DNA of 35,330 nt from Candidatus Magasanikiibacteriota bacterium (GCA_026396555.1 JAPLWO010000061.1:1-35330); one strand, 5' to 3'; positions 1,057-28,000 are shown, counted from the first letter of the stretch. Notes: generated by a model from the sequence alone, not told the origin. Program-made: numbers and translations.

Positions 1057-1058
1057 CT

Positions 1059-6772: not shown

Positions 6773-6806
6773 TGTTAACCCAGAAGCGACAATTTACAAC
6801 AACAAC

Positions 6807-8139: not shown

Positions 8140-8568
8140 TTATTTCAATGTAATCAAAATCGCTCCGCCGACCATGACCGCTGCACCGAGTGCAGTTTTC
8201 CACGTAAATGATTCGCCCAAAAATAAAACCGCCAAAATCACGACGAAAACTAAGCTCATACGATCAATCGCAGAAACTTTAACTGGATCGCCTAATTTTA
8301 ATGCTAAAAAATAGCAGAGCCACGACAGCGCGCCCGCAAGTCCGGCCAAAAATAAAAAGAACCACTCACGTCCAGAAAAGCTTCCCCATTTCACGCCGCG
8401 AAATGTACCAAACATAAATCCTGCGACCAGCAAAACGCCGGACATAATAAATGAGCGGACGGTTGTTGCGAGCGTAGAACTCATGTCTTGAATTCCAATT
8501 TTTCCAAAAATCGCGACCAATGCAGCGAAGATTGCGGAACCAAACGAAAATAATAACCAGGTTGGCAT
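8140..8568 (-). CDS. Small EamA/DMT-superfamily membrane transporter (single EamA domain)
   Basis: Four to five TM helices with an EamA-like C-terminus: DPVKVSAIDRMSLVFVVILAVLFLGESFTWKTALGAAVMVGGAILI. Start set at the internal ATG at 8568 (MPTWLLF...), which sits just downstream of an extended -10-like TGCTATACT. The tracked ORF runs to 8622. Confidence 0.75.
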   Translation of the reverse strand: MPTWLLFSFGSAIFAALVAIFGKIGIQDMSSTLATTVRSFIMSGVLLVAGFMFGTFRGVKWGSFSGREWFFLFLAGLAGALSWLCYFLALKLGDPVKVSAIDRMSLVFVVILAVLFLGESFTWKTALGAAVMVGGAILITLK

Positions 8569-8669
8569 ATGCAAACAGTATAGCATTGAGCCACGAAAAT
8601 AAAAAAACCTCCGCACCGACAACGTTCGTCATCGATTTAGAGGTACCACACCAATCTGCTCGCTTGAAG

Positions 8670-9176
8670 TTACGGCGCGTAGAGACGTTCCTGACTAGCG
8701 ATGCCACCAATGCACAAAGGCAACAAAGCGCTTCCCGAATTCACGTCGCACCCGATCTGTTCGATCGTTTGGTCTTTCGGTTTGTCGACATTGTAAACTT
8801 GTACCGTGCAATCGAAATTACCAACTGGATTGGCGTACCGCACGTCCAAATACGGATTACCCTTCAGCTTCATCACTGCAAACTTGTGGCCGATGGCGTG
8901 TCCAGAGCGTGCCGCATGCTCGTCAATTCCCTTCTTGTACACGTCGCAGGCGTGCTCGTGTCCCTCGATGAGCAGCGTTAGGTGACCGAAACGACCAGGC
9001 CAACCCACATCTTCGGTAGTATCCATTCCAATCCACTGGAGCGGAACGTGCGTCAACTGCGCCGACGCGGCGACCGGAGCGCTTTCATGCGACGAGAACA
9101 AGGCGTACATCCCACCAAGCAAAATCGCACCGAAAAGCACTTTCCTGAACCAGTGCGAGGGGTTTTTGAGCGACAT
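8670..9176 (-). CDS. Hypothetical signal-anchored/secreted protein (His- and Cys-containing)
   Basis: Start set at the ATG at 9176 (MSLKNPSHWF...), which is preceded by AGGAGG. N-terminal hydrophobic segment VLFGAILLGGMYALF. GC-rich like its neighbours. No family recognised. Confidence 0.6.
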   Translation of the reverse strand: MSLKNPSHWFRKVLFGAILLGGMYALFSSHESAPVAASAQLTHVPLQWIGMDTTEDVGWPGRFGHLTLLIEGHEHACDVYKKGIDEHAARSGHAIGHKFAVMKLKGNPYLDVRYANPVGNFDCTVQVYNVDKPKDQTIEQIGCDVNSGSALLPLCIGGIASQERLYAP

Positions 9177-9273
9177 GAGTCCTCCTGTTTGAGGTTCGTT
9201 CGTGTAGATGCGAAACAACTACGCAGTAGTTCGCGTACCAAACAGTACTATTTTTTCAGCGCTTTGTCAACCC

Positions 9274-11409: not shown

Positions 11410-11688
11410 TTGAAAACTTTCTATAAAGTAGCATCGGTAGTTCTGTTCATCAATACAGTGATCGCGGCCGTCTTTTTCTTTTGTTCGCTATCTACAGGTG
11501 ATGCAATCCCCAAGGACCATCTGCTCGAACGGATCGCGAACAAGACAGATTCGATCGGATTTGCGCTTGTAGGCATTACCATGCTCTTGGGATCCATGGT
11601 CGCTGACCTCCACCTGCAAATCCTCACTCTCTCGCCTGAACAAAAAGACAAAAAGCGCTCCTGGCCATTCAAACCCGAAGGTCGCTAA
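11410..11688 (+). CDS. Small two-TM membrane protein, hypothetical (TTG start)
   Basis: GAGGAG lies 7 nt upstream of the TTG at 11410. Two hydrophobic helices. A canonical terminator follows at 11727-11764. No family recognised. Confidence 0.5.
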   Translation: MKTFYKVASVVLFINTVIAAVFFFCSLSTGDAIPKDHLLERIANKTDSIGFALVGITMLLGSMVADLHLQILTLSPEQKDKKRSWPFKPEGR

Positions 11689-11726
11689 GACTTCAGGCTC
11701 CACTCGATCCCCGATCCCGTTTCCCG

Positions 11727-11764
11727 CGCAGCCGCCACACCACCATGGCGTCTGCGTTTTTTTT
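11727..11764 (+). terminator. Rho-independent terminator
   Basis: CGCAGcCGCCA, loop CACCACCA, TGGCGtCTGCG, followed by TTTTTTTT (11757-11764). Confidence 0.65.
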
Positions 11765-11784
11765 ATCCAGGTTTTTTCCCCAAA

Positions 11785-11932
11785 TAAAAAATCCAATGCC
11801 TTTTGAAGGATCGTCTCGGAGGCTCGCGAGATTGGTGTTTTGCCAGAGGCAAAACTCGCGAGCCGAGAGATAGCGCGCACCGCCGCTGGAGCGGTGTGAC
11901 GCGTGATCCTGAAAAAGGTATTGGATTTTTTA
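11785..11932. other. 148-nt highly structured element: 20-bp AT-rich closing stem plus two GC-rich inner hairpins. Candidate ncRNA or MITE-like insert.
   Basis: 11785-11804 pairs with 11913-11932 (20 bp, one G-T). 11807-11812 AGGATC pairs with 11905-11910 GATCCT. Inner hairpin GGCTCGCGAG...TTTTGCC-aga-GGCAAAA...CTCGCGAGCC spans 11821-11863. A second hairpin is CACCGC-N7-GCGGTG. The element abuts the CCA end of tRNA-Arg. Confidence 0.4.
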
Positions 11933-12009
11933 TGGTGCACTCGAGAGGACTCGAACCTCTGACCCTCAGCTCCGCAAGCTGATGCTCTATCCATCTGAGC
12001 TACGAGTGC
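11933..12009 (-). tRNA. tRNA-Arg, anticodon GCG, with encoded CCA
   Basis: The reverse complement folds as a cloverleaf: GCACTCG TA GCTC AGATGGATA GAGC A TCAGC TTGCGGA GCTGA GGGTC AGAGG TTCGAGT CCTCT CGAGTGC A CCA (77 nt). The anticodon loop UUGCGGA gives GCG at positions 34-36. Confidence 0.9.
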
Positions 12010-12534: not shown

Positions 12535-12785
12535 AAAAAGTGTGTATGAATTATAACAGATTTCATCCAAAACTTCTAAAGTTCGAGATCCATTGACGGG
12601 AGCAGCCAAATTCGTTACAATTGGAACGTTCTTAAAACTGAATGGAGAGGTGGCTTCGAGCGGAGGAAAAACAGACACTGTCTATTTTTCCCGCGAGAAG
12701 GGGTTGAGCACTGCGAAACCCGGGACGAGCTTGCTCGGACACCTCAACATACAAGCACACCACACTTTGTGTGGTGGAATAAATT

Positions 12786-12876
12786 GGAGAGGTGGCCGAG
12801 TTGGTCGAAGGCACCACACTGCTAACGTGGCAGGGGGTAATTCCCCTCCAGGGTTCGAATCCCTGCCTCTCCGCCA
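12786..12876 (+). tRNA. tRNA-Ser, anticodon GCU, long variable arm, with encoded CCA
   Basis: GGAGAGG TG GCC GAGTTGGTCGAA GGC A CCACA CTGCTAA CGTGG, variable arm CAGGGGGTAATTCCCCTC, CAGGG TTCGAAT CCCTG CCTCTCC G CCA (91 nt). Confidence 0.92.
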
Positions 12877-12880
12877 AACT

Positions 12881-12908
12881 AAAAACCTGACTTTATGTCA
12901 GGTTTTTA
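12881..12908. terminator. Symmetric (bidirectional) terminator hairpin after tRNA-Ser
   Basis: AAAAACCTGAC, loop TTTAT, GTCAGGTTTTT. The A-run and T-run flank the stem on both sides. Confidence 0.6.
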
Positions 12909-12947
12909 GTTTGATGTGAGATGTTAGAGAGATTCGAAGGGCACAAA

Positions 12948-13007
12948 GAAATTGTCAGTCGACAATTTCGGCTGCCCCGGCCTCAGGTACATTTTTTGTA
13001 CCTGAGG
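12948..13007 (-). terminator. Two tandem hairpins downstream of the 13055-13741 gene; likely its terminator region
   Basis: CCTCAGGTAC-N7-GTACCTGAGG at 12981-13007 and GAAATTGTC-N4-GACAATTTC at 12948-12969. On the minus strand the second hairpin is followed by UUUGUG. Confidence 0.4.
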
Positions 13008-13054
13008 CGAATCCCGTTGTGCCAAAAGCGAATCCTCACATTACTTATAGCTAT

Positions 13055-13741
13055 TTATTTCGAAAACAACTTCACGAACCACCCAAACAAGCTAAATTTA
13101 TTTTCATGTGTAGTGACAAATGCATTTACTTTTACCTGTGAATCCTCCAGTGATGAAATTTGCTTAGTCAACTCATCTTTATCCACCTTTGTTTTCATTT
13201 TCGATTCCAACTTTTTGAGTTGATCAATATGATTTTGTGTCGTCGTCATTTCACTACGAAGATCCCCCAAGCTTTTAAAATCAGTTCCCAAAATGAATGT
13301 GTGAATTCGACCACGCGATTCAACCTTTGCCATTGCAGCAGTCGAGGTAGCGCTTGAATCATTTTGCTGTTGTGCGATTACACGAACCTCCTCGCCAATA
13401 CCATCTTCACGATCGGCAACTTTGAGCAATGACTGAACAAAATTTGCGACAGAACTTCGATGCTCTTCTGAAGTAAATTGCCCCTTATCACCTTCTTCGG
13501 TGCTGGTAGTATTTTCATTTTTATCAGTGCTTGTAGAATGAACCTCTTCCGAATCTTTTTCTGTACTTGTTGTTTTTTTAAAATCTTCAGTACTACTTGC
13601 TTTAACTCTATCTCCAACCTCAACATTCCCTTCTGCATTCACACGAACTTCTAATTCTTTTGCGTGAACTGTAGCGACGGTGAGCATCGAGGCTGCGAGC
13701 ACGAACATGGTCGAAAGCGTTGATACCAATTTTGGTTTCAT
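13055..13741 (-). CDS. Secreted hypothetical protein, acidic/Ser-Thr-rich then coiled-coil-like
   Basis: Signal peptide MKPKLVSTLSTMFVLAASMLTVATVHA. The remainder is low-complexity and heptad-like. No family recognised. Confidence 0.7.
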   Translation of the reverse strand: MKPKLVSTLSTMFVLAASMLTVATVHAKELEVRVNAEGNVEVGDRVKASSTEDFKKTTSTEKDSEEVHSTSTDKNENTTSTEEGDKGQFTSEEHRSSVANFVQSLLKVADREDGIGEEVRVIAQQQNDSSATSTAAMAKVESRGRIHTFILGTDFKSLGDLRSEMTTTQNHIDQLKKLESKMKTKVDKDELTKQISSLEDSQVKVNAFVTTHENKFSLFGWFVKLFSK

Positions 13742-13800
13742 ATGTTAATTAAAGTGGACGCTCATTAAAAAGCGGCACTCCATATACCATACCACTACGA

Positions 13801-14400
13801 TCATGTTCCCGCAATCGTAATGCCGAGTATTTTTTCAGCCCCTGATGCTCGTAACGCTCGAGCGCAATCTCGAATCGTACTCCCTGTCGTTACCACGTCA
13901 TCAAAAATCATATAGGTCATTTGCGCATCACATCGTCGCCCCGGTGAAACACTAAACGCCTTTTGAATTTGTTTCTGACGTTCTTCTTCGTTTGATTCCG
14001 CCTGAGCGTGTGTATAAACAGTTCGCTGTAATAAACTCGTATCAATTACCATGTTGCTATTCACCGCGGCGCGCGCCAATAATTCCGCCTGATTAAACCC
14101 GCGTTCAGCAAAACGTTCTAGATGAAGTGGTACTGGAATAATTACACACGGTCCAGTAACATCCTTGATTACACGCGCAACAATCGGCTGTACCCACGTT
14201 CCACACAATTCAGCTGCATCGCGCACACGTCCATATTTTACCGCACGTATCGCCGCAGCAACTGGCGTGCAATCGTATGAATGTGCTGCATACACCGGAA
14301 TATTATCAACCCATTTTATAAATTCAAACGACTCTCGCCGCGCGGTCTCACACACAGAGCACCACAATCCCCGTTTACCCCACGCACACCAAAAATACAC
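13801..14400 (-). CDS. comFC: ComF-family competence protein (phosphoribosyltransferase fold, ComFC-like)
   Basis: PRTase signature MIFDDVVTTGSTI, an N-terminal Cys cluster (WCSVCE), and a ComF-like central region (IIPVPLHLERFAERGFNQAELLA). GTG start. It overlaps the upstream ORF by 26 nt. Confidence 0.85.
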   Translation of the reverse strand: MYFWCAWGKRGLWCSVCETARRESFEFIKWVDNIPVYAAHSYDCTPVAAAIRAVKYGRVRDAAELCGTWVQPIVARVIKDVTGPCVIIPVPLHLERFAERGFNQAELLARAAVNSNMVIDTSLLQRTVYTHAQAESNEEERQKQIQKAFSVSPGRRCDAQMTYMIFDDVVTTGSTIRDCARALRASGAEKILGITIAGT

Positions 14401-14815
14401 CCCACACAGCGGAAAAAGCTTGACCCAATTTCGTTGGAGACGAAAGATGTGTCTGTGCCCAAACTTTTAAATCACCTGACATGAGCGGTAAAAGTTGCTG
14501 CAAATTTGCCGACTGTCCATCAGTTGAATATGTCCCAAAACGCGCAACAAAATCAAGTGCCCAGCGTTTTAATTGCGCTTCTTTTGAATCAGTCGGAGGT
14601 GTTGTTTCAGAAACTTTCGTCTGCGTTGTTCCCGTAGAAACTCCAGCCGCCGGTTCAACTGTCCCTTTTTTCGGCGCTGTTACTTCCGTTGTCGCGGGTG
14701 TTTGCGCCGCCGGATGTTTAATGCGCCACCAATACACAATTCCACCAACAATAATTACTGCTCCTGCAGCAATCGCAATTCCAATTTTAATTTTTTGTTT
14801 TACAGATTCGTCCAT
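14375..14815 (-). CDS. Hypothetical N-terminally membrane-anchored protein
   Basis: TM helix IGIAIAAGAVIIVGGIVYWW, a Pro/Thr-rich linker, then a small domain. Starts 5 nt downstream of the virB4-like stop. No family recognised. Confidence 0.6.
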   Translation of the reverse strand: MDESVKQKIKIGIAIAAGAVIIVGGIVYWWRIKHPAAQTPATTEVTAPKKGTVEPAAGVSTGTTQTKVSETTPPTDSKEAQLKRWALDFVARFGTYSTDGQSANLQQLLPLMSGDLKVWAQTHLSSPTKLGQAFSAVWGVFLVCVG

Positions 14816-14820
14816 ATGTT

Positions 14821-16800
14821 TTATTCCGGATTAAATTCGATCGGCACTACGCTTTCAAATGCTTCTTGCGCACCCGTTCCCTCAGCCGCAATATCACCAC
14901 TCAATCGTCCTGCAGCTGCGCTCGCGTCAAGCACATCTTGTTCCTCACGTAATTTTCGTCGCTCTTCTTCAAGTCGTAATAATTGTTGTGGATCAGTGGT
15001 CACAATTTGATCTTCATTATACGACGCGACAATTTTAATCGCCGCGTGTTTTTGTCCCGCAAAGAAAATTCCTTCACCAACCGCACTTTCAAGCAACAAA
15101 TATTTTTCTCCCTCTGTCAGTAAAAACGTTTTCACCAACGTATCAATTGCCGCCGGAGATTGTTTTAACAATAATTGAATTGATGAGTTCGTCACAATCG
15201 CCTGACCGTAGGGCGATCCCAAAAAGTCGTTCACATCTTGTGTAATCGTCGTCACACCAAGAAAATATTTACGCGCACGTTTTACCAACGCAAAAATAAA
15301 TCGCGCCGAATCTTCGTGCTGCATGAGCCACCACGCTTCATCAATCATGAGCGTACGTTTCTTACGACTTGAACGAACCACATTCCAAATGTAATTCACA
15401 ATCGTATAAATTGCAACCGGGCGCAATTCGTCTTCTAAATCACGTACACAGTAAACAACCAGCTGATTCCCCATGTCGACGTTCGTTGGATGATTGAGCA
15501 ACCCCGAAAACGTTCCTTCCGTAAACTTTTTCGTTTTAACCAACATATTTTCCGCGCCCGTCATGCCTTCAAGCACTGATTGAAAATCTCCAATCACCGG
15601 CGCTTCAACTTTCGTTAAATCTGCGTCAGGCGTAATATCTTTTTTCGCAAATGTTTCAAGCAGCGCGCGATCAAGCAGCGAATCCTCCTCGTTCGTGACC
15701 GTACCAAACATAATACGGAACAATCCTTTTAAAGTAATAACCGCGCTACGAATAATATCTTCCGTCGAAATTTGTTCACCAACTGGTCTTGGCAAATCAA
15801 ATGGATTTACTTTTGCTTCTGACGCAAGTGAAATATTAATAAATGTTCCACCCACCGCATCCGATAATTGTTTGTATTCGTATTCAGGATCAATAACAAT
15901 TACGGTCACACCAATCATCATCAAACGTAAAATTTCCAATTTAATTGCATATGATTTACCTGCACCCGATGTTGCAAATACAACTGAATTCGCGTTTTGA
16001 AGCGAAAAACGATCAAATAAAATCAAACTATTATTATGGCGATTGATGCCATACAAAATTCCATTATCACTCGTTAATTCCGCAGACATAAATGGAAATG
16101 ACGCAGCAATCGGCGACGAATTCATGTTCGCCGTAATCATGAGTTCATCATTCCCCACCGGAATCGTTGAATTAAATCCCTGCTCTGCCTGATACAAAAC
16201 TTTTTTTGTATAAATTAATTTTGATCCAAACATTCCTTCGATGTCAGCCGTCGTTTTATCAAGCTCCTCTTTCGTCTTCGAGTAAATCGTTATGTACAGC
16301 GCAAACTGAAAAAACTTTTCAGTTCCTTGGGACAACGCATCACGCAGCGCTTCAATATCACGCAGCGCCGTTTCTGCAATCGGATCACGCGGCGCACCTT
16401 TTTCTGCGGCAGATACAATTTCAGCTTCCATGAAACCCACACGTTCTTTTAATTGTTTTAAAATAATTTCTGAAGGCACCGGATAAAAGAACATGCCGAT
16501 GTCGAGTGTGAGCGGCAAATTAATAATTGGTGCAAACCAACCAACGCTAATATAGCGAGGATACGTAATCACACATAATGATCGCGCAAAAACCTCACCA
16601 ATTAAAATGTGTCCAGACTCAACTTTAAACGCGGCAGGCGCGATAATGTCTCGAATATTAACAACACCAGCGCGATAAATTCGTTCGGATTCGAGCGCTA
16701 GTCGCTCCTCAGCAATTTTTGCTTGCTGCTCGTCCTTTTTTGTCGGACGTTTTTGAGGCGCGTTAGTTGTAGCGGTTGGTGAAATGGGTTGAAATGCCAT
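14821..16800 (-). CDS. virB4: VirB4/TrsE-family type IV secretion ATPase
   Basis: Walker A ATSGAGKSY (about nt 15949-15969). VirB4-typical Walker B LMIDEAWWLM (DEAW). N-terminal VirB4-like domain (VITYPRYISVGWFAPII). Confidence 0.9.
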   Translation of the reverse strand: MAFQPISPTATTNAPQKRPTKKDEQQAKIAEERLALESERIYRAGVVNIRDIIAPAAFKVESGHILIGEVFARSLCVITYPRYISVGWFAPIINLPLTLDIGMFFYPVPSEIILKQLKERVGFMEAEIVSAAEKGAPRDPIAETALRDIEALRDALSQGTEKFFQFALYITIYSKTKEELDKTTADIEGMFGSKLIYTKKVLYQAEQGFNSTIPVGNDELMITANMNSSPIAASFPFMSAELTSDNGILYGINRHNNSLILFDRFSLQNANSVVFATSGAGKSYAIKLEILRLMMIGVTVIVIDPEYEYKQLSDAVGGTFINISLASEAKVNPFDLPRPVGEQISTEDIIRSAVITLKGLFRIMFGTVTNEEDSLLDRALLETFAKKDITPDADLTKVEAPVIGDFQSVLEGMTGAENMLVKTKKFTEGTFSGLLNHPTNVDMGNQLVVYCVRDLEDELRPVAIYTIVNYIWNVVRSSRKKRTLMIDEAWWLMQHEDSARFIFALVKRARKYFLGVTTITQDVNDFLGSPYGQAIVTNSSIQLLLKQSPAAIDTLVKTFLLTEGEKYLLLESAVGEGIFFAGQKHAAIKIVASYNEDQIVTTDPQQLLRLEEERRKLREEQDVLDASAAAGRLSGDIAAEGTGAQEAFESVVPIEFNPE

Positions 16801-16801
16801 A

Positions 16802-17527
16802 CTATTCTTTTTCTACGCGCAATTGATCAGTCGGGACTAATTTTTCTGTGAGGAAAATGTCTGGGTTGTACACGGTGTAATATAGTTCAATGAGCCCTTC
16901 CGTGTCGAGCTGCTGAACCTGCAAACCCATACTCTGCATTCCGCCTAGCACCAAATTCAAACGCAAATCCAAATCTTTTTTCTGATCAAAAAATTTTTCT
17001 TCTTTTGCACGAACCGATTTTGATGGAGATAAAACTTCTGAGAAACGCTGCCAAAAACCTTTTGCTTTATTCGATCCTGGACTAAGTGGCACGACCACAA
17101 AAAAACGCTTGCTCATGATTTGGCCCAGCTCAATTAGTTCTCGGATAAACTGTCGATAATCTGAAATCTGTGTGCGCAATAATTCATTTTTCTGCACACG
17201 TTCAGACTCTTTTAATCGATCAAGATATGAATCAATATTTAATTTACGAGACTGCACCACCACCTGAATTGGAAAATCGAGTGAGTTTAAAAATCCAACA
17301 TACGCCGCAATAATTGCGTTTTGCTCATCTTCCGACTTCAGCGCAAAATTAATCGACGAAACTAAAATCACCGCACGAATCGTTCCATCTTTCATGATAA
17401 CGGTATTGTCACGAATTTCAGCAATATCTAAATATTGCTGTGTTGAAACACTCGGCTTCGGTCCCGCCAGTTTTTTACTGTTCAGTGTTTCTACTTTTGG
17501 ATTTTCTTTTTGCGAAGGAGCAGCCAT
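16802..17527 (-). CDS. Hypothetical T4SS accessory protein resembling a stand-alone VirB4 N-terminal domain
   Basis: The pattern YLDIAEIRDNTVIMKDGTIRAVILVSSINFALKSEDEQNAIIAAYVGFLNSLDFPIQVVVQS resembles N-terminal regions of Gram-positive VirB4 homologs (from memory). No NTPase motifs. Its stop lies 1 nt before the virB4 start. Confidence 0.6.
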   Translation of the reverse strand: MAAPSQKENPKVETLNSKKLAGPKPSVSTQQYLDIAEIRDNTVIMKDGTIRAVILVSSINFALKSEDEQNAIIAAYVGFLNSLDFPIQVVVQSRKLNIDSYLDRLKESERVQKNELLRTQISDYRQFIRELIELGQIMSKRFFVVVPLSPGSNKAKGFWQRFSEVLSPSKSVRAKEEKFFDQKKDLDLRLNLVLGGMQSMGLQVQQLDTEGLIELYYTVYNPDIFLTEKLVPTDQLRVEKE

Positions 17528-17533
17528 ATTTTT

Positions 17534-17977
17534 TTATAAAACGTCTTCTGACTCAGGCTGATACGCGCCACCTGTATTTACGATGAGCGACAATTCATTC
17601 AACCGACTCGCGCCGATGAACCGTTTATGTTCCATGTGCACCGTCGGAACAGCTTGTTCAGGATTCACGAATCGTTGAATATATTCTGTACTCAAATCTT
17701 TTTGCCACACGCGCAATTTTGGTTTGCGCAGAGTTTGAATAATATTCAGTAGAAAAAAATGAAATCCTTGACCATTCACTTTTACAAATGCAACAACGAT
17801 CGTAATGATCCCAACAGGAATCGATGCAATCACAAACCAATTAAACGCAAATAACAATTTAAAAATCGCACAGATCATCACACCAACGAAAACAATGATA
17901 AATTGTCGTGGTGTAATTGGCCCTAATAACTTTGGCTCAACATCAATGAATTGTGGAATAACAAATTGCTCTGGCAT
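17534..17977 (-). CDS. PrgI-family (VirB3-like) small T4SS membrane protein
   Basis: N-terminus MPEQFVIPQFIDVEPKLLGPITPRQF followed by two TM helices, typical of the PrgI family. It sits upstream of virB4, separated from it by one small ORF (16802-17527). Confidence 0.7.
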   Translation of the reverse strand: MPEQFVIPQFIDVEPKLLGPITPRQFIIVFVGVMICAIFKLLFAFNWFVIASIPVGIITIVVAFVKVNGQGFHFFLLNIIQTLRKPKLRVWQKDLSTEYIQRFVNPEQAVPTVHMEHKRFIGASRLNELSLIVNTGGAYQPESEDVL

Positions 17978-17979
17978 AT

Positions 17980-19809
17980 TTAAGTGATATACCGAATGGA
18001 TGCAAGCAAATCACGAAGCGCTGCAATTTCATCTGGCTCGAGTGATGGTTTGCCTAATTTTTTTTCTGACGCCGCGAGTTCGTCGACTGAAGTGCCTGTA
18101 AACAGTCCCCGCTTCAAAAATTCTCGATACAAACGAATCGGCTCACATTGTTCGATCGCATGAACCGCACGAACTTTTTCACTCGGACCTTCTTGTCCGA
18201 TTACTTCTAGTTTACTCCGAATTTTTTGAATACGCACGGAAACATCTTCTGACAAGCGACGAAAATCAACCAGTGTCATGCTTGCGAGTTCATCAATCGG
18301 CCCCATCAAACGATGCCCCACATTTGGATGTGAACTTGGTCGAATATCTGTAATCTTTTTTACCTGTGCAGTCGACTGTATTGTAGAAACAGGCATCGCA
18401 CCCGGCGTCACATTCTTAGGCTTAATTGGAAAAATCGGCTGATCCGCATCAATCAACTGACGCAATTTATCCGGAATTTTTGGAACGTATTTAGGCGTTC
18501 CGCTCGTCGCAGTAATTGGACGAGCTGCAGCTGATGGGATGGTTGCAGGTACTGCCGCTGGGGCGGTCGTAACAGCAGGAATGGATGATAAAATGGGCGC
18601 CATGTGTGATTTTGCTTCTTGCCCTGGATGCGCCGCTTCTGCAGTCTGAATTTCCCGACGCGTTTCCTTTCGAATCGCCTCAACAGCATCCCGGCCAAAC
18701 ATTGATACAAAGCGTTGATTGAGTTCCCGCTGATCTGATGATGTTTTTGCTTCAGGCCCCGCATTTGCCGAACCTGTCGCATTTTTTTGTACGCTCGCGA
18801 TTTTTTCCATCACCGTAAATTCTGCACGTCTGTTTTCAAAACCACCTACTGTTTTTTCCAGTAGCGCTGCGAGTCGATTCACTTCAAACGCGCTCACGCC
18901 CAAACCACCCTGAGCCATCGGCGCACTCAGTGCCGCACGAGTTTGAACCGCATCACGTGCGCCTCCAATACGTGTGACCACAATCGATTTCCAGCGCGCC
19001 TGCATTTCTGGTGAGCGATCTGTCATTGGCTCAATCGCAAGCACCGCATCAACCAACGATTGCTGCTGAGTATTTAAAATTAATTCTTTAACCTCTGCTG
19101 CATTATTTTTTTTATCCGAAATTTCCACATGATCATCTTCGGTCAAGGCTGATTTTGGAATTGTGCTCGGATCAATCGTGCGAGTTGGTACTGCGTTTAC
19201 GGGCGCTTCCGTTTTATTTATTTTATATGCCGCGACATATTCTCGAATTTGTCGCACAACTTTTTTTGCGACATCCTCTCTAAGTCCACAGCCGCCCTCG
19301 GTAAATGCAGCGCGCAATTTTTTCTCTACTTCAGCGCGATCAAATTTTTCTGTTTTTAATACTGCACCCACAACTTCATCTAAACGAGTTGCAGCAGGAC
19401 GCGGAAGGTCGCCGACGATGTCAGAAACTGATTTTACAGCTGCATCAAAAGAAATTTCCGGTTGTATAACCTTAGAAATTTTTGAATTTACGTCGCCAGA
19501 ATATGCGGGAAAAAACCATTTGACCGGTCCGCAAATAGTGCTCAAAATTTCTTTTGCAGCAGCATCAGATTTATCCGCTGAAATTCCAACACGCGAGCTA
19601 AGCGCCCCAGAAACTGCTGTGGCATCAGGAGTAAGCGCGCGAAAAAACAACTCCCCCTCAATTCGAATAATCTCATCAAAATTTTCTTCCGTTAAATTAT
19701 ACGTTTTTACAAACACATCATTAAAATTACCCAGCTCCTCGCTTAACAAAAAGTTAACAAGCACCTTTGGTAATTCCGTAATGGTTGAAAATTGTAAGGA
19801 AGCATTCAT
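17980..19809 (-). CDS. Hypothetical 609-aa protein inside the T4SS-like operon
   Basis: Long ORF with clean coding character and no TM segment. Contains the Pro/Ala-rich linker IPAVTTAPAAVPATIPSAAARP. 9 nt downstream of the VirB6-like gene and 2 nt upstream of the PrgI-like gene. No family recognised. Confidence 0.75.
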   Translation of the reverse strand: MNASLQFSTITELPKVLVNFLLSEELGNFNDVFVKTYNLTEENFDEIIRIEGELFFRALTPDATAVSGALSSRVGISADKSDAAAKEILSTICGPVKWFFPAYSGDVNSKISKVIQPEISFDAAVKSVSDIVGDLPRPAATRLDEVVGAVLKTEKFDRAEVEKKLRAAFTEGGCGLREDVAKKVVRQIREYVAAYKINKTEAPVNAVPTRTIDPSTIPKSALTEDDHVEISDKKNNAAEVKELILNTQQQSLVDAVLAIEPMTDRSPEMQARWKSIVVTRIGGARDAVQTRAALSAPMAQGGLGVSAFEVNRLAALLEKTVGGFENRRAEFTVMEKIASVQKNATGSANAGPEAKTSSDQRELNQRFVSMFGRDAVEAIRKETRREIQTAEAAHPGQEAKSHMAPILSSIPAVTTAPAAVPATIPSAAARPITATSGTPKYVPKIPDKLRQLIDADQPIFPIKPKNVTPGAMPVSTIQSTAQVKKITDIRPSSHPNVGHRLMGPIDELASMTLVDFRRLSEDVSVRIQKIRSKLEVIGQEGPSEKVRAVHAIEQCEPIRLYREFLKRGLFTGTSVDELAASEKKLGKPSLEPDEIAALRDLLASIRYIT

Positions 19810-19818
19810 AGAAGAATG

Positions 19819-22800
19819 TTAGGGTCGCGGACCACTTAACGTAAAAATAACTCGCGCCTCACGACGTAAATTCAAATCCGGGCTGTAATGTTTAAACGCA
19901 TTTCCAACACCTGACATAACTTTTTTCTTCTGCTCTGTATTTTCAATTTTGTCAGCAATTGTGTCTGCCATGGTTTGCATTTGTGCGGATGACATCGCGG
20001 AATTTGCCAACGCTCGCTGCACACCTTCATGCGCCGCCGCTTCTGGCGCAAGATTTGCAACCAATGTTGGATCCGAATTAAACGCAGCTGTAAGATTTGC
20101 AATTTGAATGCCCGAAAATTTATGAGGACCTGTTTCCTTACCATCAACAGTCTCACGTTTTCCACCCAAATCTTCCAAATTGTATTGAACACCCTCTTCT
20201 GTTCCATGATCACGATGTGTCCATTGGCGTTTCAATTCAGTAACAACAACTGCAGGATTAATTGAGGCAAAACCTGTTGAAAGAACGTTCGTCATATCAT
20301 CTACACGACGATCAAGTGCTGGATTTCCTGAACGAGCTGCTGCAGTAACAGAGCTCAAGAAATTTGCACGATCAGCTTCTGGAACCAAACTTGCTGATTG
20401 CGCCAAATGTTCTGAAACCGCAACATCTGATCGGCCAGCCTCCAACGCACGTCGAACTTCCTGACCAATTCCTTGCGCAAGTTTTGCGTTTGCTGCCGCT
20501 AAATCTGCAGGGCTCATCGCAGTATTGTAATCGCCACGATACGCGTTCTGAATCGGTGTAACATTTGCTCGAATCTCTTGATTTTCAACTTTAGCCGCTT
20601 CAGCTGCATTTGCTGTCGCAACACGAGTCGCTTCAGCTGCCGCAGTTGCTTGTTGCCGTGCTGTTCGATCAGCCTCAGCTTGTAAATCAACTGCAGATTT
20701 TCCATCATTTCTTCCCATTACCACGCCGCCAACTACAACATTTTCGTTCAACTTATATTTATCTGTTCGATAATCCTTCAGCATCTGCTCCATTACCGCG
20801 CGTGACTGAGAGCCATCGCCTGCGGCAATTTTCTCGGCCGTAATTGCGTCCTTAACCGCAAGCTCCTGTTCATCAGTCCAGTCAGCCGCATCAGGATCTT
20901 CTTTCTTACGCTCTTTACGACGTCGTTCGAGTTCATCCTTAACACTTTTATCAAATTTAGGATCAACCAATTTAACTGCTGCTGCCAATTCGGTCTCTGT
21001 AATATCACGTTCGCCATTTGCCTTACGCGGCGCATTGAACTTTTTCGTCATCTCATGAATAAGTGCATCTGAACTGTTCAAACCTTGTTGCTTAAACAAA
21101 TCTGTCTGCGCGCTAATTCCATGATCAAGATCATTACGCGCTTTCTGAACATTTGCCTGATAATTTGCTTGCGCTTGTTTGACTGCATCAGTTTGCGCCG
21201 TGCCAATCAGCGAAGCCGCCTTCGTCAACTCATCATGAAACTGATGCACTGCGTGATCTTGATTCGCTTCTGAATGTTCATTCGCGTCACGCACCGCAGT
21301 CATCTTCTTTCCTTGTTCACCAAAACCCAAAACACCTGCAGCATTTTTTAAAGCCTGCACGCGATCTGCTTGTGCGTGGCGACCTGTCGTACCAATATAT
21401 TTTTTACTTGTTTCTGGAAGCCCTTCACCTTTTTGCGCAGTCCAATCAGCAGCTCGTTCAGCAGCACCCTGCAATCTCCGTGGAAGAATTCTACGTGCAG
21501 TTGCGGATCGCGCAAGCCCTGGCAAACGACTCGTAAGCGCCGGCGATTTTTGCGCCAATAAATCCAGCCCACGTGTTGTAAATCCACCCTCACCCTTGAT
21601 TCCTTTTTTCGTTTGGGTCCAAATACCTGCCTTGCCGCTCCATGCTTGTTTTGCAACAAAGCCTGCGCCGCGACGCGCGTAACCACTCAATTTTTTATTT
21701 GCGAAACCCGTGATTTGTTTTGCATAGCTACCAGAAATTCCAACCGCCCATTTTGCGCCTAAAATAAAAATGACAATCGGCGTAAAAAATAACGCGAGAT
21801 TTTCCCACTGAGAAATTTTTGTACCCGCGATGTCAGACGGCGCGACTTGTGATCCGGTTGCATTAACTTCCGCGAACGCCGGCGCACTAATCACAGAAAA
21901 AGCCTGGTCGCTCACCGCAATACTTGCGAGCGAAATCCACACCACAAACGCAACCACAGGACCAACCATCAATTGCGCGTTAAATGCGTGCCACCACGTG
22001 CTTTGAAATCCTTTGGTGACCGGCAACACTTTTGCAACAAACGCGAGCGGGGACGCGACAATCAAAAACCAGAGCGTCACAATACGCACCACCAATATAA
22101 TATCGAGTGAAAGCACTGCGAGAATTCCGATAAATGAAATAATCGTTGTAAATGTATTTGCCGTAATTGTTGAAAACACATTCGCCGCAAAAGCAGCACC
22201 CTTCGCAACATATTCCGCGGTAAACGCTGTTCCACCGCTTGCGGCAGATAATTGATTCCCCGCCGTTCCCAGCGCGAGTTGCACCCAGTTATCAACTTTA
22301 AAAAGTCTGATAAAATTTCCACCTGCTGTTTCCGCGAACCCACTTACAAACGTCATCATCACAACTTGTGACGCGTCGATGAGCAAACCACAAATCATTT
22401 TACTAAAATTCACGAGCAACGCCGCGGCCAAGAAATTTTTCATGAGCGCACTTGCCTGATATCCGTTAAAATCCAAAATCGTTGCAAACGCAATAACCAA
22501 CAATGCGACCACGAGAAACATGTTCGCAATATCACGCGTTACACTCCATCCAATTGTCACGATCGTCGATCCCAAAAAAGTATTGTACTGACTGATGCCA
22601 ATCAAAAAGTTGATGAGAAACAAAAAAATACCGGCAAAAATCGATACCAGCATTTTTGTTAAGAAATACAGGACAACAATCCACGTAACCAACGCACCCG
22701 CACCATCGGTCAGCGACATGACGCCTTGAATAAGCGACACAAAAACCCCATCAGCCGCATGTGCCTGTTTTGGAATCAAAAGTGCGATCACGGGGATCGA

Positions 22801-22893
22801 AAGCACGAGCGATCGAATCGCTAATTTATATTTTGAAACCAGCTCTTCCGCGCTGCGTCGTGCGATTTTAATTTTTTCTAAAAAACCTCGCAT
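19819..22893 (-). CDS. Polytopic VirB6/TrbL-like membrane protein with a C-terminal hydrophilic extension of about 630 aa
   Basis: Start set at the ATG at 22893 (MRGFLEKIK...); the tracked ORF starts at 22956. Signal-like segment ending QAHA, then at least 7 hydrophobic helices to about nt 21740, then an Ala/Lys/Glu/Asp/Gln-rich tail. The VirB6 call is inferred from topology and operon position. Confidence 0.65.
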   Translation of the reverse strand: MRGFLEKIKIARRSAEELVSKYKLAIRSLVLSIPVIALLIPKQAHAADGVFVSLIQGVMSLTDGAGALVTWIVVLYFLTKMLVSIFAGIFLFLINFLIGISQYNTFLGSTIVTIGWSVTRDIANMFLVVALLVIAFATILDFNGYQASALMKNFLAAALLVNFSKMICGLLIDASQVVMMTFVSGFAETAGGNFIRLFKVDNWVQLALGTAGNQLSAASGGTAFTAEYVAKGAAFAANVFSTITANTFTTIISFIGILAVLSLDIILVVRIVTLWFLIVASPLAFVAKVLPVTKGFQSTWWHAFNAQLMVGPVVAFVVWISLASIAVSDQAFSVISAPAFAEVNATGSQVAPSDIAGTKISQWENLALFFTPIVIFILGAKWAVGISGSYAKQITGFANKKLSGYARRGAGFVAKQAWSGKAGIWTQTKKGIKGEGGFTTRGLDLLAQKSPALTSRLPGLARSATARRILPRRLQGAAERAADWTAQKGEGLPETSKKYIGTTGRHAQADRVQALKNAAGVLGFGEQGKKMTAVRDANEHSEANQDHAVHQFHDELTKAASLIGTAQTDAVKQAQANYQANVQKARNDLDHGISAQTDLFKQQGLNSSDALIHEMTKKFNAPRKANGERDITETELAAAVKLVDPKFDKSVKDELERRRKERKKEDPDAADWTDEQELAVKDAITAEKIAAGDGSQSRAVMEQMLKDYRTDKYKLNENVVVGGVVMGRNDGKSAVDLQAEADRTARQQATAAAEATRVATANAAEAAKVENQEIRANVTPIQNAYRGDYNTAMSPADLAAANAKLAQGIGQEVRRALEAGRSDVAVSEHLAQSASLVPEADRANFLSSVTAAARSGNPALDRRVDDMTNVLSTGFASINPAVVVTELKRQWTHRDHGTEEGVQYNLEDLGGKRETVDGKETGPHKFSGIQIANLTAAFNSDPTLVANLAPEAAAHEGVQRALANSAMSSAQMQTMADTIADKIENTEQKKKVMSGVGNAFKHYSPDLNLRREARVIFTLSGPRP

Positions 22894-22958
22894 GTATGGT
22901 GAGAAAAATTGAAACTTCGTTGACAGTATAACACATTCGTGCGAAAGTACGTACAACT

Positions 22959-23987
22959 ATGACGCCCCAAAAAGCACTTATCCACTACCCACTCGGCCGC
23001 GTTTCGGCCATCACTCCAATTTCAGTCGGACTCATTCACGAAACGTATCACGTCGAAGCGATCGACCCGTCGACTGGTAAAATTGCACCGTTTATTTTAC
23101 AACGATTGCATACCGCACTTGCATCACCGAGCGTGACGGAAGATTATTTTGCTATCACTGAGCATTTGGCAGCAGCAGGAGTTACAACGCAGAGAGTTTT
23201 ACGAACTAAGACAGGCGAAATTACGTTAACCGATGATGTTGCAGGGCGCCGCTGGCGATTGATGGTGTTTGTGCCGGGCCAGGTTTTTTCTGTGGTTGAT
23301 TCTGCAGCGCGTGCGCGAGCGGTTGGGGCTAGTGTTGGAGTGTTTCATGGGGCACTGGCTAATTTAAAATATAAATTCAAGTCTAAATTAGCGCTTCATC
23401 CGTATGACACGTCTAAATTTTACAAGGATTTTGTGCGCGTAACGAAAAAGTTTGCGAAAGATCTTCTTATGACGCCGGATATTCGTCGCGACGTCGATTT
23501 TTTGTTGGCCGAGATTCCGAAGTTGGCGCTGCCCGCAGGATTGTCGACGCGAATCGTACATGGCGATTTAAAAATTACGAATTTCGTGTTTGATGAGACG
23601 GGAAAAAATGTTCGTGCAATTATTGATTTGGATACGTGCGCGCGATTCCCTGTGTTGTTGGAGCTTGGCGATGCGTTACGTTCTTGGTGTGGACATGTGG
23701 AAGACGATCCACGGAATAAGTTCGATGGTGCGAAATACCGAGCTGCAGTTGAAGGTTACATAGGTGCGGCGCCACGCGGATTTTTGAGTGCTCATGAGCG
23801 AAAATTATTGCCTCGTGCAGTGAAATTGATTATCTTAAATCTGGCATCGCGTTTTTTGAAAGATTATTTTGAGGACAGTTATTTTGGTTTTGATACGAAA
23901 AAGTACTCGACTCGTCGCGCGGCGAATTTGGCTCGTGCTCGTGGACAAATCGCATTGTATCGAGACGCAGTGAAAAAATTGGCTTAA
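22959..23987 (+). CDS. APH/choline-kinase-like phosphotransferase family protein
   Basis: Catalytic loop IVHGDLKITNFVF (HxDxxxxN) and metal-binding IIDLDT. Length is about 340 aa. Divergent from the T4SS-like operon. Confidence 0.8.
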   Translation: MTPQKALIHYPLGRVSAITPISVGLIHETYHVEAIDPSTGKIAPFILQRLHTALASPSVTEDYFAITEHLAAAGVTTQRVLRTKTGEITLTDDVAGRRWRLMVFVPGQVFSVVDSAARARAVGASVGVFHGALANLKYKFKSKLALHPYDTSKFYKDFVRVTKKFAKDLLMTPDIRRDVDFLLAEIPKLALPAGLSTRIVHGDLKITNFVFDETGKNVRAIIDLDTCARFPVLLELGDALRSWCGHVEDDPRNKFDGAKYRAAVEGYIGAAPRGFLSAHERKLLPRAVKLIILNLASRFLKDYFEDSYFGFDTKKYSTRRAANLARARGQIALYRDAVKKLA

Positions 23988-24012
23988 TTTGGGCTTAAAA
24001 GCGGCTTTCCTA

Positions 24013-24041
24013 TTGACAAAAAGGCTTTTTCGTGCTACTCT
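24013..24041 (+). promoter_or_regulatory. Candidate promoter TTGACA-N17-TACTCT, overlapped by the palindrome CTCTTAA-T-TTAAGAG (24038-24052)
   Basis: TTGACA at 24013-18, a 17-nt spacer, TACTCT at 24036-41. A 15-nt perfect palindrome spans the -10 box and start site. It lies about 85 nt upstream of the lipoprotein ATG. Confidence 0.35.
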
Positions 24042-24127
24042 TAATTTAAGAGTGAAGCACCTAAACTGGTGTAGAAACTCGGCATTCAGCCACAGATCCA
24101 CAGCATCCAAGCTGTGAGGAGGTCATC

Positions 24128-24982
24128 ATGAAGACGACAACGACGATGGCTGCCCTCGTGGCAGTTGCGATGGTTCTGGCTCTCGGCGCGTGCAGCGGTT
24201 GCAGCGCGGTTGCGGGGGGCGGCGATGCGACCAACGACACGATCGGTACGGGCGACGCAGGTTCGGACGACTCCACAGGCGACGCGACCCTCTACGGCGA
24301 CATCGCCGGTCAGGGCGACGCGGTCCACAACGACACGGTCGGTGGGGATGACGGAACGAATTCAGACGCGACGGACGCGGCTACGACGATCAAGATCGGC
24401 GATCCATGCGTTTACGGTGCGCCGAATACGTGCGCTCTGGACGGCAAGTACCTCGTGATCGCTCAATGTAACTCCATTGATGAAACATGGGGTATCAAGG
24501 CGTTCTGCACCGAGTTTGACTCCTGCAAAAACGGCGCGTGCGTCCACAATCCCGCCACTTGTCCGCTTGCAGGCTACCCGGAAACGACGGAGACGCTCGT
24601 GGTCGATGGCATCGAGTACTGCGTTCCGCCGGGCAACAGCATGATCAAGCGCGCGCTCCTGACGATCAGTCAGAGTATGGGTATTCCGCCCAACGGGTCG
24701 TGCAGCGGTCCATTTAACTCTGATCCTGGTAAGTGCACCATCAACTTTGAACTCATGGGTATCGGAAAAACAGGGCTCTTCGTGTTCGAATACACGTTTC
24801 CAAATAAACCCAACGTAGCTTCGCGTATCGTAATCACGGCATGTGATGAAAAAAAACAGCGCTGTGTTGGTCAGCATTACCCAGATGACAATGGCTCGCC
24901 GGGAACTGTGGTCATCGACCTCAATACAAGCACGATTGATTTAGGAGATCTGGGTTTTCTCTATCAGCTGCTCCTCAAGTAG
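24128..24982 (+). CDS. Lipoprotein with an acidic Gly/Asp/Thr-rich linker and a Cys-rich C-terminal domain
   Basis: Strong SD GAGGAGG at 24115-24121. Signal peptide with lipobox LALGAC. Reiterated GDA/GDD units (24220-24385). Ten or more Cys in the C-terminal half. Confidence 0.75.
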   Translation: MKTTTTMAALVAVAMVLALGACSGCSAVAGGGDATNDTIGTGDAGSDDSTGDATLYGDIAGQGDAVHNDTVGGDDGTNSDATDAATTIKIGDPCVYGAPNTCALDGKYLVIAQCNSIDETWGIKAFCTEFDSCKNGACVHNPATCPLAGYPETTETLVVDGIEYCVPPGNSMIKRALLTISQSMGIPPNGSCSGPFNSDPGKCTINFELMGIGKTGLFVFEYTFPNKPNVASRIVITACDEKKQRCVGQHYPDDNGSPGTVVIDLNTSTIDLGDLGFLYQLLLK

Positions 24983-25002
24983 TTTGACGTTCACGCCACT
25001 GC

Positions 25003-25058
25003 ACCGCAGACATATCTTTCTGAGATAACAACTCAAAGATCTGTATGCGGTCTTTTTT
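25003..25058 (+). terminator. Long-stem rho-independent terminator between convergent genes
   Basis: ACCGCAGACA...TGTATGCGGT with an inner ATCTTTcTGAG/CTCAAAGAT stem, followed by CTTTTTT. The T-run overlaps the TAA stop (25057-25059) of the giant minus-strand gene. Confidence 0.55.
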
Positions 25059-28000
25059 ATTCTTTTACAATAATATAGCCCTGGAATGGAGAGGCAGCAT
25101 TTCCATTTTTAGTAAGGTCACATTTTGTGCTATCAGCTGAAGAATCAGCCCAATACCCCACCGCATTTCCATTCGCATCAACACCATTACAAATCCCCCA
25201 ATTATCCATCAGCTGAACTTTTGGTTTAAATGCACAGAATTTCTCGCCAATATTCACAATATTTTGAAGATGAAACTGACTGATTAAAGGCCCTGTTGCT
25301 TCAACAGCGACGCCCGTTGAACTTGCTAAACTTTTTCCACCACAATCAGACGTGTATCTATATGCATGTGCAAATTGAAAGTAACCTTGTTCACACGCAC
25401 CTGCATCATTAATGCCATCTCCGCCCCATGAACCAAACGACCACTTTTTTGCATTAGGTGTTGGAGCACAGCTTCCTGTAACAACACCTGCGGAATTAAC
25501 GCAGTCTTTGTCTGTTGCACAAGTTGTATTGTAATCAACCACGCCCGCAAACGTACACGCAGTCGCCGGTTCCGTTGGAGTCGAACAAATAGGTTTATGG
25601 TTTCTAAATAATCCCTGTTTGGAAACCGCTGCACCCCCCGCATCGCCCCAATCAATTGTCACTCTTTGAATCGGCAAGTGATTGCGATCTGCTGATCCAT
25701 AGAATTTGAGTGTTGCACCCACAGATCCTTGACCTGCCACCACAGCGGTATCACCATTTTTTCCATTAATGGTCATGTCATTTTTTCGTGCAACGCGGCA
25801 AGTTCCACTTTGTACGCCCGTGCAAGAATCAGCATCAAGCGCATACACTGTTGGAGGCGCTGATATACCTGTTGCAGTTGTGTCCATAGTTAACCCTGGT
25901 GTATTTTCAGCCGATCCACTATACGCATAAAACCTAGCAAATAATTGATGGAGCGCACTTACGCCTGTAGTAAACGAGATTTTCGCTGCAGCATTTCCAT
26001 TCTCAGCACCCAAACAAAGTCCTGGACCATATTCGCAACTGTAAGCTCGTGCACCAACTGATGGAATATCAACCCTTTCTTTCCCAACATAAACAAGATC
26101 AAAAGGCGTTTGCTGCGCCGTAATAACAGATCCAAAATATTGTGATGCAAACGGAATAAATGCGTCAGATCCTTGAGCTGGCAATATAATTCCATTTTCA
26201 TTAAGCGCCAATCCCATTTCGTGATTTGTATTTTTATTCGGTGCTTGCCACAAATTATTTGTCTGCGCAGCATTTTGACCGTTTAAATCCGTTTGAACAG
26301 CCTCTGTACAACGATCAGTTAAATTAATCTTGAATTTCCAGCCAGCTTTTATCGGATTTGTTCCACCAAAAATAGCAGTTCCATCGCAAGACCCTGCAAC
26401 GAGCTCTGGAGCACTAACCAAACCACTCTTTATAATCAAATTAAGTTCGTAAACACGCTCATTGCCTCTAAATGCCATGCCCGCAGACCCAGCGCCCAAA
26501 TCAGTACAATCACCACCAGACGGACCCATTGATTTTTGAATAAAGTCAGTTCCGTTTAGACCTACAAAATCATGTATTAACATTCCATTATAGAACAGCG
26601 CAGACTGGAATGGACTATTTTGATAATTATGATTAACGATTCTCAAAAACCACACCTGATTTGCATATGGCGGGGCTTGCGGATTTCCGCCCATATCAAA
26701 ATTCGACAACAAAGTTTCAATTTCATCGTTATCAACAATTTCAGTGTGCTTTATAACCCCTGTCACTGCTTGTGCCGCAGGTTCATCAATACCATTTAAG
26801 CTCGCCGCTTGCGCAGTATTTTGCTCGCCACGAGAGCAAGAAAAATATTTCTTAACATCCACATCACCATTTCCTCCAAAATAATTATTACCTACACGCA
26901 CTGCTTTACTCAACGTCTTAAGTACATCAGATTGAATGCCAGACAATGCTGACGGATCAAGAAAATCAAAATATTGGTTTGATCCAGCATCTTTTGGTTC
27001 ACGAACCAAGCAATCACCCGTAACGCTTCCCGCAAGTGGCTCTGTTTTTTTTGTTTCATCTACCCAACCGCCATTAACATAAGATCGGATAACACCGTCA
27101 TCCTTAATAATCATCTTATATCCTTGTGGAAAAAATGAATTTTCTGCCGTCGCTTCAATTTCAATTGAATCAATATCAGAGCTATGGGTATCTACAGGTA
27201 ATTGAGCCGCTCCCAACTCTGTCGAGTAATTCACCGGAGCATCAGCAAGAACACTGTACTTTAATTCAGGAAGTGCGTATGAAAATGAAAGTTTACCCGC
27301 AGCATCCGCTTTACCCTTTCCACTGGTTGCCAAACAATACATACGGCCCTGGCCGAGCGGACCAACACTAAATCCTGCACTCGAATACTGATTATATAAA
27401 TCTGTGCTTCCCACATCAATCGGCAGCCACGTCTGACATGCACGTTCATTATTGTTACCATTTAAATGCGTTCGAAAATCTTGCTCAAGACAATATCCTT
27501 CCCAACCCATCACCTTCGTCTCCTTGGTTTTGAACTGACACGTTCCATCTTCTGGCGAATAATGATAGCTCGCATCGCTGCCAACAGCCGTCGCGTCTGT
27601 CGTTGCGCCCGCCGTAATATCCTTAATCTTTAATACACGCTCATCAATACAATCAAAATTACTTGAACATGAAAGCCCTTTCTTAGAAACTGCCAAATTA
27701 GGTTTTGCCACCTGCCCCTCTTTATCGCCGGCAACATACCAACCGCCATCACACACACCAGGTTTAATTGGTGAATTTGCCGTGTCATAATAATGAGTCG
27801 TGTTTCCTTGACCATATACAACTTTCGTATAACTACACTCACAAGAACCATTTGGAACACTCGCAGGATCAAGATCGCTAAAGCCCTGAATCTTTAAAAA
27901 ATCACTAAACGAAGTCCATGTATTCTTACCCGAAGTTGAACCGCCCGTATATTTCAACACCACGGAACGATAGGGCGCACAAATATTAACGCGTTCAAAT

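Follow-up and report, generated by a model that had tools for sequence, protein, structure and literature searches.

The window analysed here, a stretch of 35,330 nucleotides (nt; GCA_026396555.1 JAPLWO010000061.1:1-35330), is a single 35-kb contig from a metagenome-assembled genome of Candidatus Magasanikbacteria, which we take to be members of the GTDB class ABY1. Statements about the genome refer to what this contig covers. The window carries a chromosomal type IV secretion system (T4SS) of the Patescibacteria clade, monoderm and MPF-FATA-derived, in the ABY1 layout. Its core operon ends in comF and a second operon, encoding pilin-like proteins, ends in radA. On balance, the system is probably an envelope machine for contact with a host, with comF and radA co-transcribed at the ends of its operons and ComF working with ComEC as usual.

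The ORF listing shows seven open reading frames (ORFs) packed on the minus strand within 13801-22956. The gaps between them measure 9, 2, 6, 1, and 5 nt, the last two genes overlap by 26 nt, and the motifs GAGKS, DEAW, and DDVVTTGST are all found in the translations. In these respects the cluster is exactly as described in an earlier note made from the sequence alone, and the gene names proposed there (PrgI, a VirB4 N-domain protein corresponding to TrsD, VirB4, a VirB6-like protein, and ComF) are backed by profile searches and an AlphaFold (AF2) model. From upstream to downstream, the core operon consists of:

19819-22956, minus strand: VirB6/TrbL-like polytopic membrane protein, an ORF of 1045 amino acids (aa) (Pfam matches of homologues and AF2 model)
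17980-19809, minus strand: conserved uncharacterised T4SS-associated protein of 609 aa, called h609 (family profile and synteny)
17534-17977, minus strand: PrgI/VirB3-like small membrane protein, 147 aa (PF12666)
16802-17527, minus strand: TrsD-like protein, the VirB4 N-domain in a gene of its own, 241 aa (NF041427, NF045975)
14821-16800, minus strand: VirB4 ATPase of the CD1110/MPF-FATA type, 659 aa (NF045971; Walker A GAGKS, Walker B DEAW)
14375-14815, minus strand: putative PrgL/VirB8-like membrane-anchored protein, truncated, 146 aa (family profile against PrgL)
13801-14400, minus strand: ComF-family protein with a zinc finger and a phosphoribosyltransferase-like (PRT-like) domain, 199 aa (TIGR00201 comF / GntX)

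The 241-aa protein matches the TrsD/TraD model NF041427 (E 5e-6) and, at positions 99-220, the VirB4 model NF045975 (E 3e-10). Since the 659-aa protein matches the rest of the VirB4 models, reaching E 4e-102 and 342.8 bits with NF045971 (CD1110) against a cut-off of 325, the two genes represent a split VirB4. The VirB4 is 100% identical to a protein from a Candidatus Magasanikbacteria metagenome-assembled genome. More than 8000 VirB4 homologues were scored, and identities run from 70 to 87% among the 120 matches listed. PrgI was recognized by PF12666 (E 2.4e-7, 31.7 bits against a Pfam cut-off of 27).

The 1045-aa protein has no direct match in Pfam. Of 31 homologues, 10 match TrbL/VirB6 (PF04610), and some match PF19590. 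An AF2 model of its N-terminal 448 aa (predicted local distance difference test, pLDDT, 74; predicted template modelling score, pTM, 0.60) has as its five best matches in PDB the TrwI/VirB6 chains of R388, with probabilities of 0.80-1.00, four of them at least 0.99. Conservation is confined to roughly the N-terminal 35% of the protein, and the C-terminal extension is long, hydrophilic, and poorly conserved. The start is probably M22, at 22893, which gives a protein of 1024 aa and agrees with the NCBI record. An alignment of the VirB6 family run against PDB profiles returned only coiled-coil and low-complexity matches (dynactin, TolA), which were discarded.

The 609-aa protein had been called an orphan in the earlier note, a description that does not survive a wider search. 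A profile made from 19 close homologues found 2239 cluster representatives at E<=1e-3, 1590 of them at E<=1e-10, among 1.84 billion, and prgI is immediately preceded by a member of the family in each of the 70 informative ABY1 loci in the survey described below. Modelling predicts an all-helical protein of three folded modules, each with good local pLDDT, joined by Pro/Ala-rich linkers; Foldseek gave no structural match (best E against PDB, 1.0), and profile searches of Pfam, NCBIfam, PHROGs, and PDB gave none. Neither an N-terminal signal sequence nor a long hydrophobic segment was seen when the translation was judged by eye. The protein is best described as a conserved uncharacterised component of the T4SS. 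Where this contig has one gene of 609 aa, many ABY1 species have two or three of 330-480 aa between VirB6 and PrgI (L010, L021, L055, and L059, at about 5950-8800; also L004, L017, and L023). In four loci, the members of an adjacent pair of genes match different parts of the h609 profile, one the N-terminal part and the other the C-terminal part, which suggests gene fission or fusion, or else tandem paralogues.

The survey took in the best 80 species-representative loci found through VirB4 alignment (VirB4 identity 68-83%), labelled mostly as Magasanik-, Uhr-, and Falkowbacteria, with all proteins of the window compared by tblastn. The order that is conserved among them is giant protein, VirB6, h609 family, PrgI, TrsD, VirB4, PrgL-like, comF. 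TrsD is adjacent to virB4 in 80 of 80 loci, and PrgI is present in 77 of 80. The identities of the genes, their order, and the conservation of that order are matters of direct observation. So is the position of comF: it lies on the same strand, no more than 2.5 kb downstream of virB4, in 65 of 70 informative loci (93%), with one gene of about 200 aa between them. The earlier note had pointed to comF as the terminal gene of a virB4 operon, and in ABY1 that linkage is conserved. Past comF, synteny drops sharply: of 44 loci, 14 have h213 within 10 kb, 16 have recG, and 12 have radA.

Five of the 70 loci are exceptions to the linkage. In one (L003:12588-21110), an insertion of about 8.7 kb separates the PrgL-like gene from comF; it holds six co-directional genes, among them one of 1274 aa and one of 819 aa. 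In the other four, pilin, dsbA, radA, and recG directly follow the PrgL-like gene, reversed in order and orientation, and comF was not found in the 10 kb retrieved, all of which fits an inversion of the whole block from comF to dsbA. The PrgL-like gene adjoins virB4 in every locus, the five rearranged ones included, and it is comF that is displaced in those five. The breakpoint thus coincides exactly with the border of comF and the last T4SS gene, and comF is separable from the core.

That last T4SS gene had been left unassigned in the earlier note, as a 146-aa anchored protein. The gene that separates virB4 from comF in 66 related species encodes 191-220 aa, compared to 146 aa here, and the profile of this family matches PrgL of pCF10 (7aed) over its C-terminal domain, with a borderline E-value of 0.0084. 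The copy in the window ends after the helical part of the domain, and the beta-sheet C-terminal half is absent. Judging from that borderline match, the 146-aa protein appears to be a truncated PrgL/VirB8-like component, in which case the claim that the window lacks VirB8 would not hold.

ComF gave as its best NCBIfam matches TIGR00201 comF and GntX (E 6e-19), as did 21 of 21 members of its family. It scores below the curated cut-off of TIGR00201 (68.5 against 233.55 bits), and so does the best relative (E 7e-34); the ComF proteins here are divergent members of the family. The C-terminal PRT-like domain has an acidic-hydrophobic-TTG loop (DDVVTTGST). Searched against PDB, the single sequence found nothing; the family profile found generic PRTases and, over the PRT loop only, the ComF of Helicobacter pylori. 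Relatives have four conserved cysteines, whereas the ComF of this contig, read from its GTG start, has three and is without the first Cys and the LDxLFP segment. The fourth Cys is encoded in frame upstream of the GTG, with no canonical start codon before it.

The closest relative found, L081 (VirB4 87% identical), has separate genes of 196 aa and 217 aa, with 17 nt between them, and in a DNA alignment with it the contig is about 250 nt shorter across the PrgL-like/comF junction (14300-14560). The shortening is specific to the contig, both with respect to L081 and with respect to 66 other species, and it clips the C-terminal half-domain of the PrgL-like protein as well as the normal start of comF, and with it the first zinc-finger Cys. 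The 26-nt overlap thus results from a deletion or an assembly fault and is not an ancestral fusion. Of the earlier claim that comFC is fused to the operon, what remains is the tight spacing, which relatives share: small gaps or overlaps are the rule between their PrgL-like gene and comF, about 80% of the spacings being <=50 nt.

The system extends beyond the core operon. A second operon (346-6127), also tight, lies on the plus strand about 8 kb away:

346-1056, plus strand: DsbA-like thioredoxin, first gene of the pilin operon (PF13462, E 3e-21)
1059-3194, plus strand: secreted Cys-rich VirB2-like T4SS_pilin fused to an SLT lytic transglycosylase, VirB1-like (PF18895, PF01464)
3226-4770, plus strand: second Cys-rich pilin-like protein, fused to a C39-like peptidase (PF13529, weak PF18895)
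4784-6127, plus strand: RadA/Sms recombination helicase, last gene of the pilin operon (profile match; 13-nt gap)

The first pilin-like protein scores 33.6 bits with PF18895 (cut-off 26.6) and matches the SLT family PF01464 with E 1.4e-8. The second matches PF13529 with E 1.7e-11 and PF18895 with 17.8 bits, under the cut-off; its mechanical ORF begins at 3007, and a start resembling that of a signal peptide lies at 3226. Since pilin-like and SLT domains are present at 1059-4770, the system consists of more than the seven genes that the earlier note called minimal: a VirB2-like pilin, a VirB1-like SLT protein, and DsbA are encoded in the second operon. Both pilin-like proteins have a long Cys-rich N-terminal ectodomain, then a two-helix pilin domain, then a wall-hydrolase domain, and this VirB2-VirB1 fusion architecture is unusual. 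In relatives, dsbA is syntenic with the pilin genes, and the pairing suggests that the ectodomains of the pilins are disulfide-bonded.

In 10 of 12 informative loci, radA immediately follows a co-directional pilin-like gene, usually at a distance of no more than 20 nt, so that radA ends the pilin operon as comF ends the core. The link between pilin and radA is kept through at least three arrangements. In that of L025, pilin, radA, VirB6 ... VirB4, PrgL, and comF all lie on a single strand. A scan of metagenomes with RadA gave 8 loci, and the pairing is found in three close relatives; pilin genes were not detected in four distant loci, which are short and of unassigned taxon.

Profile searches of every sizeable ORF of the contig found no domain of a relaxase, VirD4, VirB11, or integrase, and no contig ORF has a domain of the outer-membrane core (VirB7, VirB9, VirB10), making the architecture that of a monoderm. 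Most of these absences had been noted earlier, and across the 35-kb contig they are upheld, VirB9 and VirB10 included. That of a coupling protein does not reach beyond the contig, since homologues of type IV coupling proteins (T4CPs) are common in Patescibacteria and mostly distant from virB4, according to the main text of Quinonero-Coronel et al. 2025 (PMC12102498). The locus can securely be called a chromosomal T4SS and not a mobile element, as the earlier note had argued: no relaxase, coupling protein, or integrase is found in the contig, and the context is conserved in 80 loci.

The main text of the same paper describes the clade to which the system belongs. The VirB4 proteins of Patescibacteria are monophyletic, phylum-wide, and related to those of MPF-FATA systems; TrsD, PrgI, VirB6, and VirB2-like pilins are encoded near virB4; and homologues of VirB8/PrgL are found almost exclusively in ABY1 (PMC12102498). 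With members of the clade such as that of Southlakia epibionticum ML1 (SEML1_0006-0019), the present locus has in common a VirB4 with adjacent TrsD, PrgI/VirB3, VirB6, and VirB2-like pilins, a chromosomal site, and no nearby relaxase, and there is no categorical difference between them. The linkage of comF, radA, and recG, singled out in the earlier note as what stands out, has been described as well: T4SS loci of ABY1 commonly occur with these genes, which according to the main text suggests functional coordination (PMC12102498, section 14). The locus is thus a good example of a pattern already known and published, rather than a discovery. The main text of the paper does not state that the two operons end in comF and in radA or that a family of about 400-600 aa always lies upstream of prgI, both observed here along with the clipped PrgL-like/comF junction, which it likewise does not mention.

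Conjugative MPF-FATA systems (Prg/Pcf of pCF10, CD1110 of C. difficile CTn2, Trs of pGO1) resemble the present one in VirB4, which scores above the CD1110 equivalog cut-off, and the MPF-FATA systems of monoderms share with it TrsD, PrgI, a putative PrgL-like component, and the lack of an outer-membrane core. Unlike them, the present locus is fixed in the chromosome and has no nearby relaxase, T4CP, or PrgB-type adhesin, and it does have VirB2-like pilins, which the Gram-positive MPF-FATA systems do not. The ComB system of H. pylori is likewise a T4SS without VirD4 or VirB11 and is associated with the ComF pathway, as the present system is by adjacency only. ComB differs in being diderm, in having VirB7, VirB9, and VirB10, and in feeding ComEC in a two-step route, whereas the present system is known from genes alone. 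The comB operons of H. pylori are not known to include comFC. The Ced system of Sulfolobales (CedA, CedA1, CedA2, CedB) also combines a VirB6-like protein with a VirB4/HerA-like ATPase at a single membrane, with no relaxase. In contrast to Ced, the present locus is without equivalents of CedA1 and CedA2, its match to CedB falls far under the cut-off, and its ATPase represents a different lineage of the VirB4 family.

Two other genes of the contig may bear on the system:

9274-11340, minus strand: RecG helicase, between the two T4SS operons (profile match)
25057-33153, minus strand: Cys-rich giant protein of 2698 aa, whose N-terminus, judged by eye, resembles a signal peptide (synteny)

No family match was obtained for the giant protein. 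In 20 of 58 loci, a co-directional gene for a homologue precedes the VirB6-like gene, and the giant protein may be a candidate surface protein or substrate associated with the T4SS. Between the giant-protein and VirB6-like genes, on the opposite strand (22959-24982), lie genes for an APH-family kinase, common only to the closest relatives L001 and L081, and for a 284-aa hypothetical protein found in none. The interval from radA to recG (6128-9273) holds genes for a MazF/PemK-like toxin, a DapD-like acyltransferase, and an EamA transporter, as well as a hypothetical gene. None of the four was detectable in the 80 related loci, and in L084 only 6 nt separate radA from recG. The DapD-like gene, whose best match is an actinobacterial DapD model, has 57% GC, compared to about 43% for the contig, and the four-gene block resembles an insertion that is specific to the lineage and possibly of foreign origin. 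Mechanical ORFs at 11488-11994 (overlapping tRNA-Arg, 11933-12009) and at 7122-8108 (antisense to the DapD-like gene) are probably not genes.

What might a T4SS with comF and radA at the ends of its operons do? According to the reading that we favour, VirB4 and TrsD would provide the energy to assemble a membrane channel (VirB6, VirB3, and the VirB8-like protein) and a VirB2-type pilus, the fused hydrolase domains would open the cell wall, and DsbA would oxidise the Cys-rich ectodomains of the pilins. The machine would be used for contact with a host cell, as in S. epibionticum, which cannot grow as an epibiont without its T4SS and pilins (Wang et al. 2023, PMC10633639). With comF and radA at the 3' ends of the two operons, functions of DNA uptake and recombination would be expressed together with the host-contact machine, and ComF would act as usual with a ComEC encoded elsewhere, not as a structural subunit of the T4SS. 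We infer the substrate and the direction of transport, as well as co-transcription, the last from spacing alone.

Three considerations lead to this reading. The T4SS clade is phylum-wide, but the link to comF is reported, in the main text cited above, for ABY1 only. The genetics of S. epibionticum separate the essentiality of the T4SS from the Com genes, in that growth does not require ComEC, ComF, or DprA, and natural transformation requires comEC (PMC10633639); according to a 2025 review, interaction with ComEC cannot be the reason why the T4SS is essential (PMC12857230). Finally, where the locus has been rearranged in nature, it is exactly the junction of comF with the PrgL-like gene that is broken.

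Other points weigh against it. The repeated tight pairing of two DNA-handling genes with two T4SS operons also fits a direct role in the transport of DNA, as does the single co-directional array of L025, running from pilin and radA through VirB6 to comF. S. epibionticum belongs to a different class (Saccharimonadia), and comF is not reported beside its T4SS; the cited papers mention no cultivated ABY1 organism. The view of the genome through a single 35-kb contig bears on ComEC, T4CP, and type IV pili. Scans of 12600-25200 for promoter and terminator consensus sequences gave counts at shuffle expectation, uninformative as to the limits of the operons.

Perhaps, then, the machine itself imports DNA in the manner of ComB or Ced, though this strikes us as rather unlikely. 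Pilus and T4SS, physically coupled to the DNA-handling proteins, would capture DNA of the host or the environment and bring it in through the wall and the one membrane. On the cytoplasmic side, the single strand would pass to ComF, and its processing by RadA and RecG would serve recombination or nucleotide salvage. Having a DNA-handling gene at the end of each T4SS operon (comF in the core operon of 93% of ABY1 species loci, radA in the pilin operon of 10 of 12 loci), with recG between the two, is more than casual adjacency. No relaxase or T4CP lies in the window, and ComB and Ced provide precedents for DNA import by T4SS-like machines without VirD4. The VirB4 of the window even matches the CedB model, weakly (E 3e-12), but with 45.8 bits against a cut-off of 700. 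The comF linkage, however, is reported for ABY1 only, in a T4SS that is monophyletic across the phylum, and comF is separated from the operon in 4 of 70 species. In S. epibionticum, it is the T4SS that is essential and not ComEC, ComF, or DprA, and transformation is ComEC-dependent. In the contig itself, ComF and the PrgL-like protein are clipped, while the other five genes of the operon are uninterrupted and of about the lengths found in relatives. The acquisition of DNA proposed in the earlier note is thus plausible on grounds of adjacency, and it has against it the genetics of S. epibionticum and the removal of comF in four species.

A more radical form of the idea is improbable: that the system is a Ced/ComB-like importer of host DNA independent of ComEC, in which ComF, and perhaps h609, replace the coupling protein and the relaxase, with RadA and RecG processing the strand. 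If true, ComEC-independent acquisition of DNA or nucleotides would explain why the T4SS is indispensable in the phylum.

We doubt to the same degree that the linkage is neutral synteny, in which an ancestral T4SS became fixed beside the housekeeping genes comF, recG, and radA, with shared transcripts that are accidental and coordinate nothing. These three genes occur in nearly all bacteria, non-competent ones included, which counts in favour of such an accident. Genes are tightly packed along the whole contig, the block is rearranged in some species that still possess the T4SS gene set, and the ComF/PrgL-like junction of the contig is damaged. Neutral synteny is weakened, however, by gene order that decays much faster just past comF: adjacency is 93% for comF and about 30-36% for the genes directly beyond it. 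Moreover, at least three different arrangements keep radA beside pilin genes.

An integrative and conjugative element, or the decaying remnant of one, can safely be rejected despite a VirB4 of the conjugative CD1110/MPF-FATA type and two tRNA genes nearby, because the contig has no relaxase, T4CP, or integrase and the locus recurs, in the same chromosomal setting, in 80 species representatives; besides, according to the main text of PMC12102498, no more than 103 genomes of Patescibacteria have a relaxase, and only 15 of these have its gene near virB4.

To the published pattern, the survey adds the 93% adjacency of comF, a boundary between the PrgL-like gene and comF at which the two can be separated, and the association of radA with the pilin genes. 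It thereby sharpens a hint, and the sharpened hint matters only if it is followed by expression or genetic data. The function of the T4SS is a live question in Patescibacteria, the system being essential in the sole species tested genetically. The strongest genomic hint of a tie between that system and the handling of DNA, one already published in the main text of PMC12102498, is the presence of comF at the end of the core operon and of radA at the end of the pilin operon.

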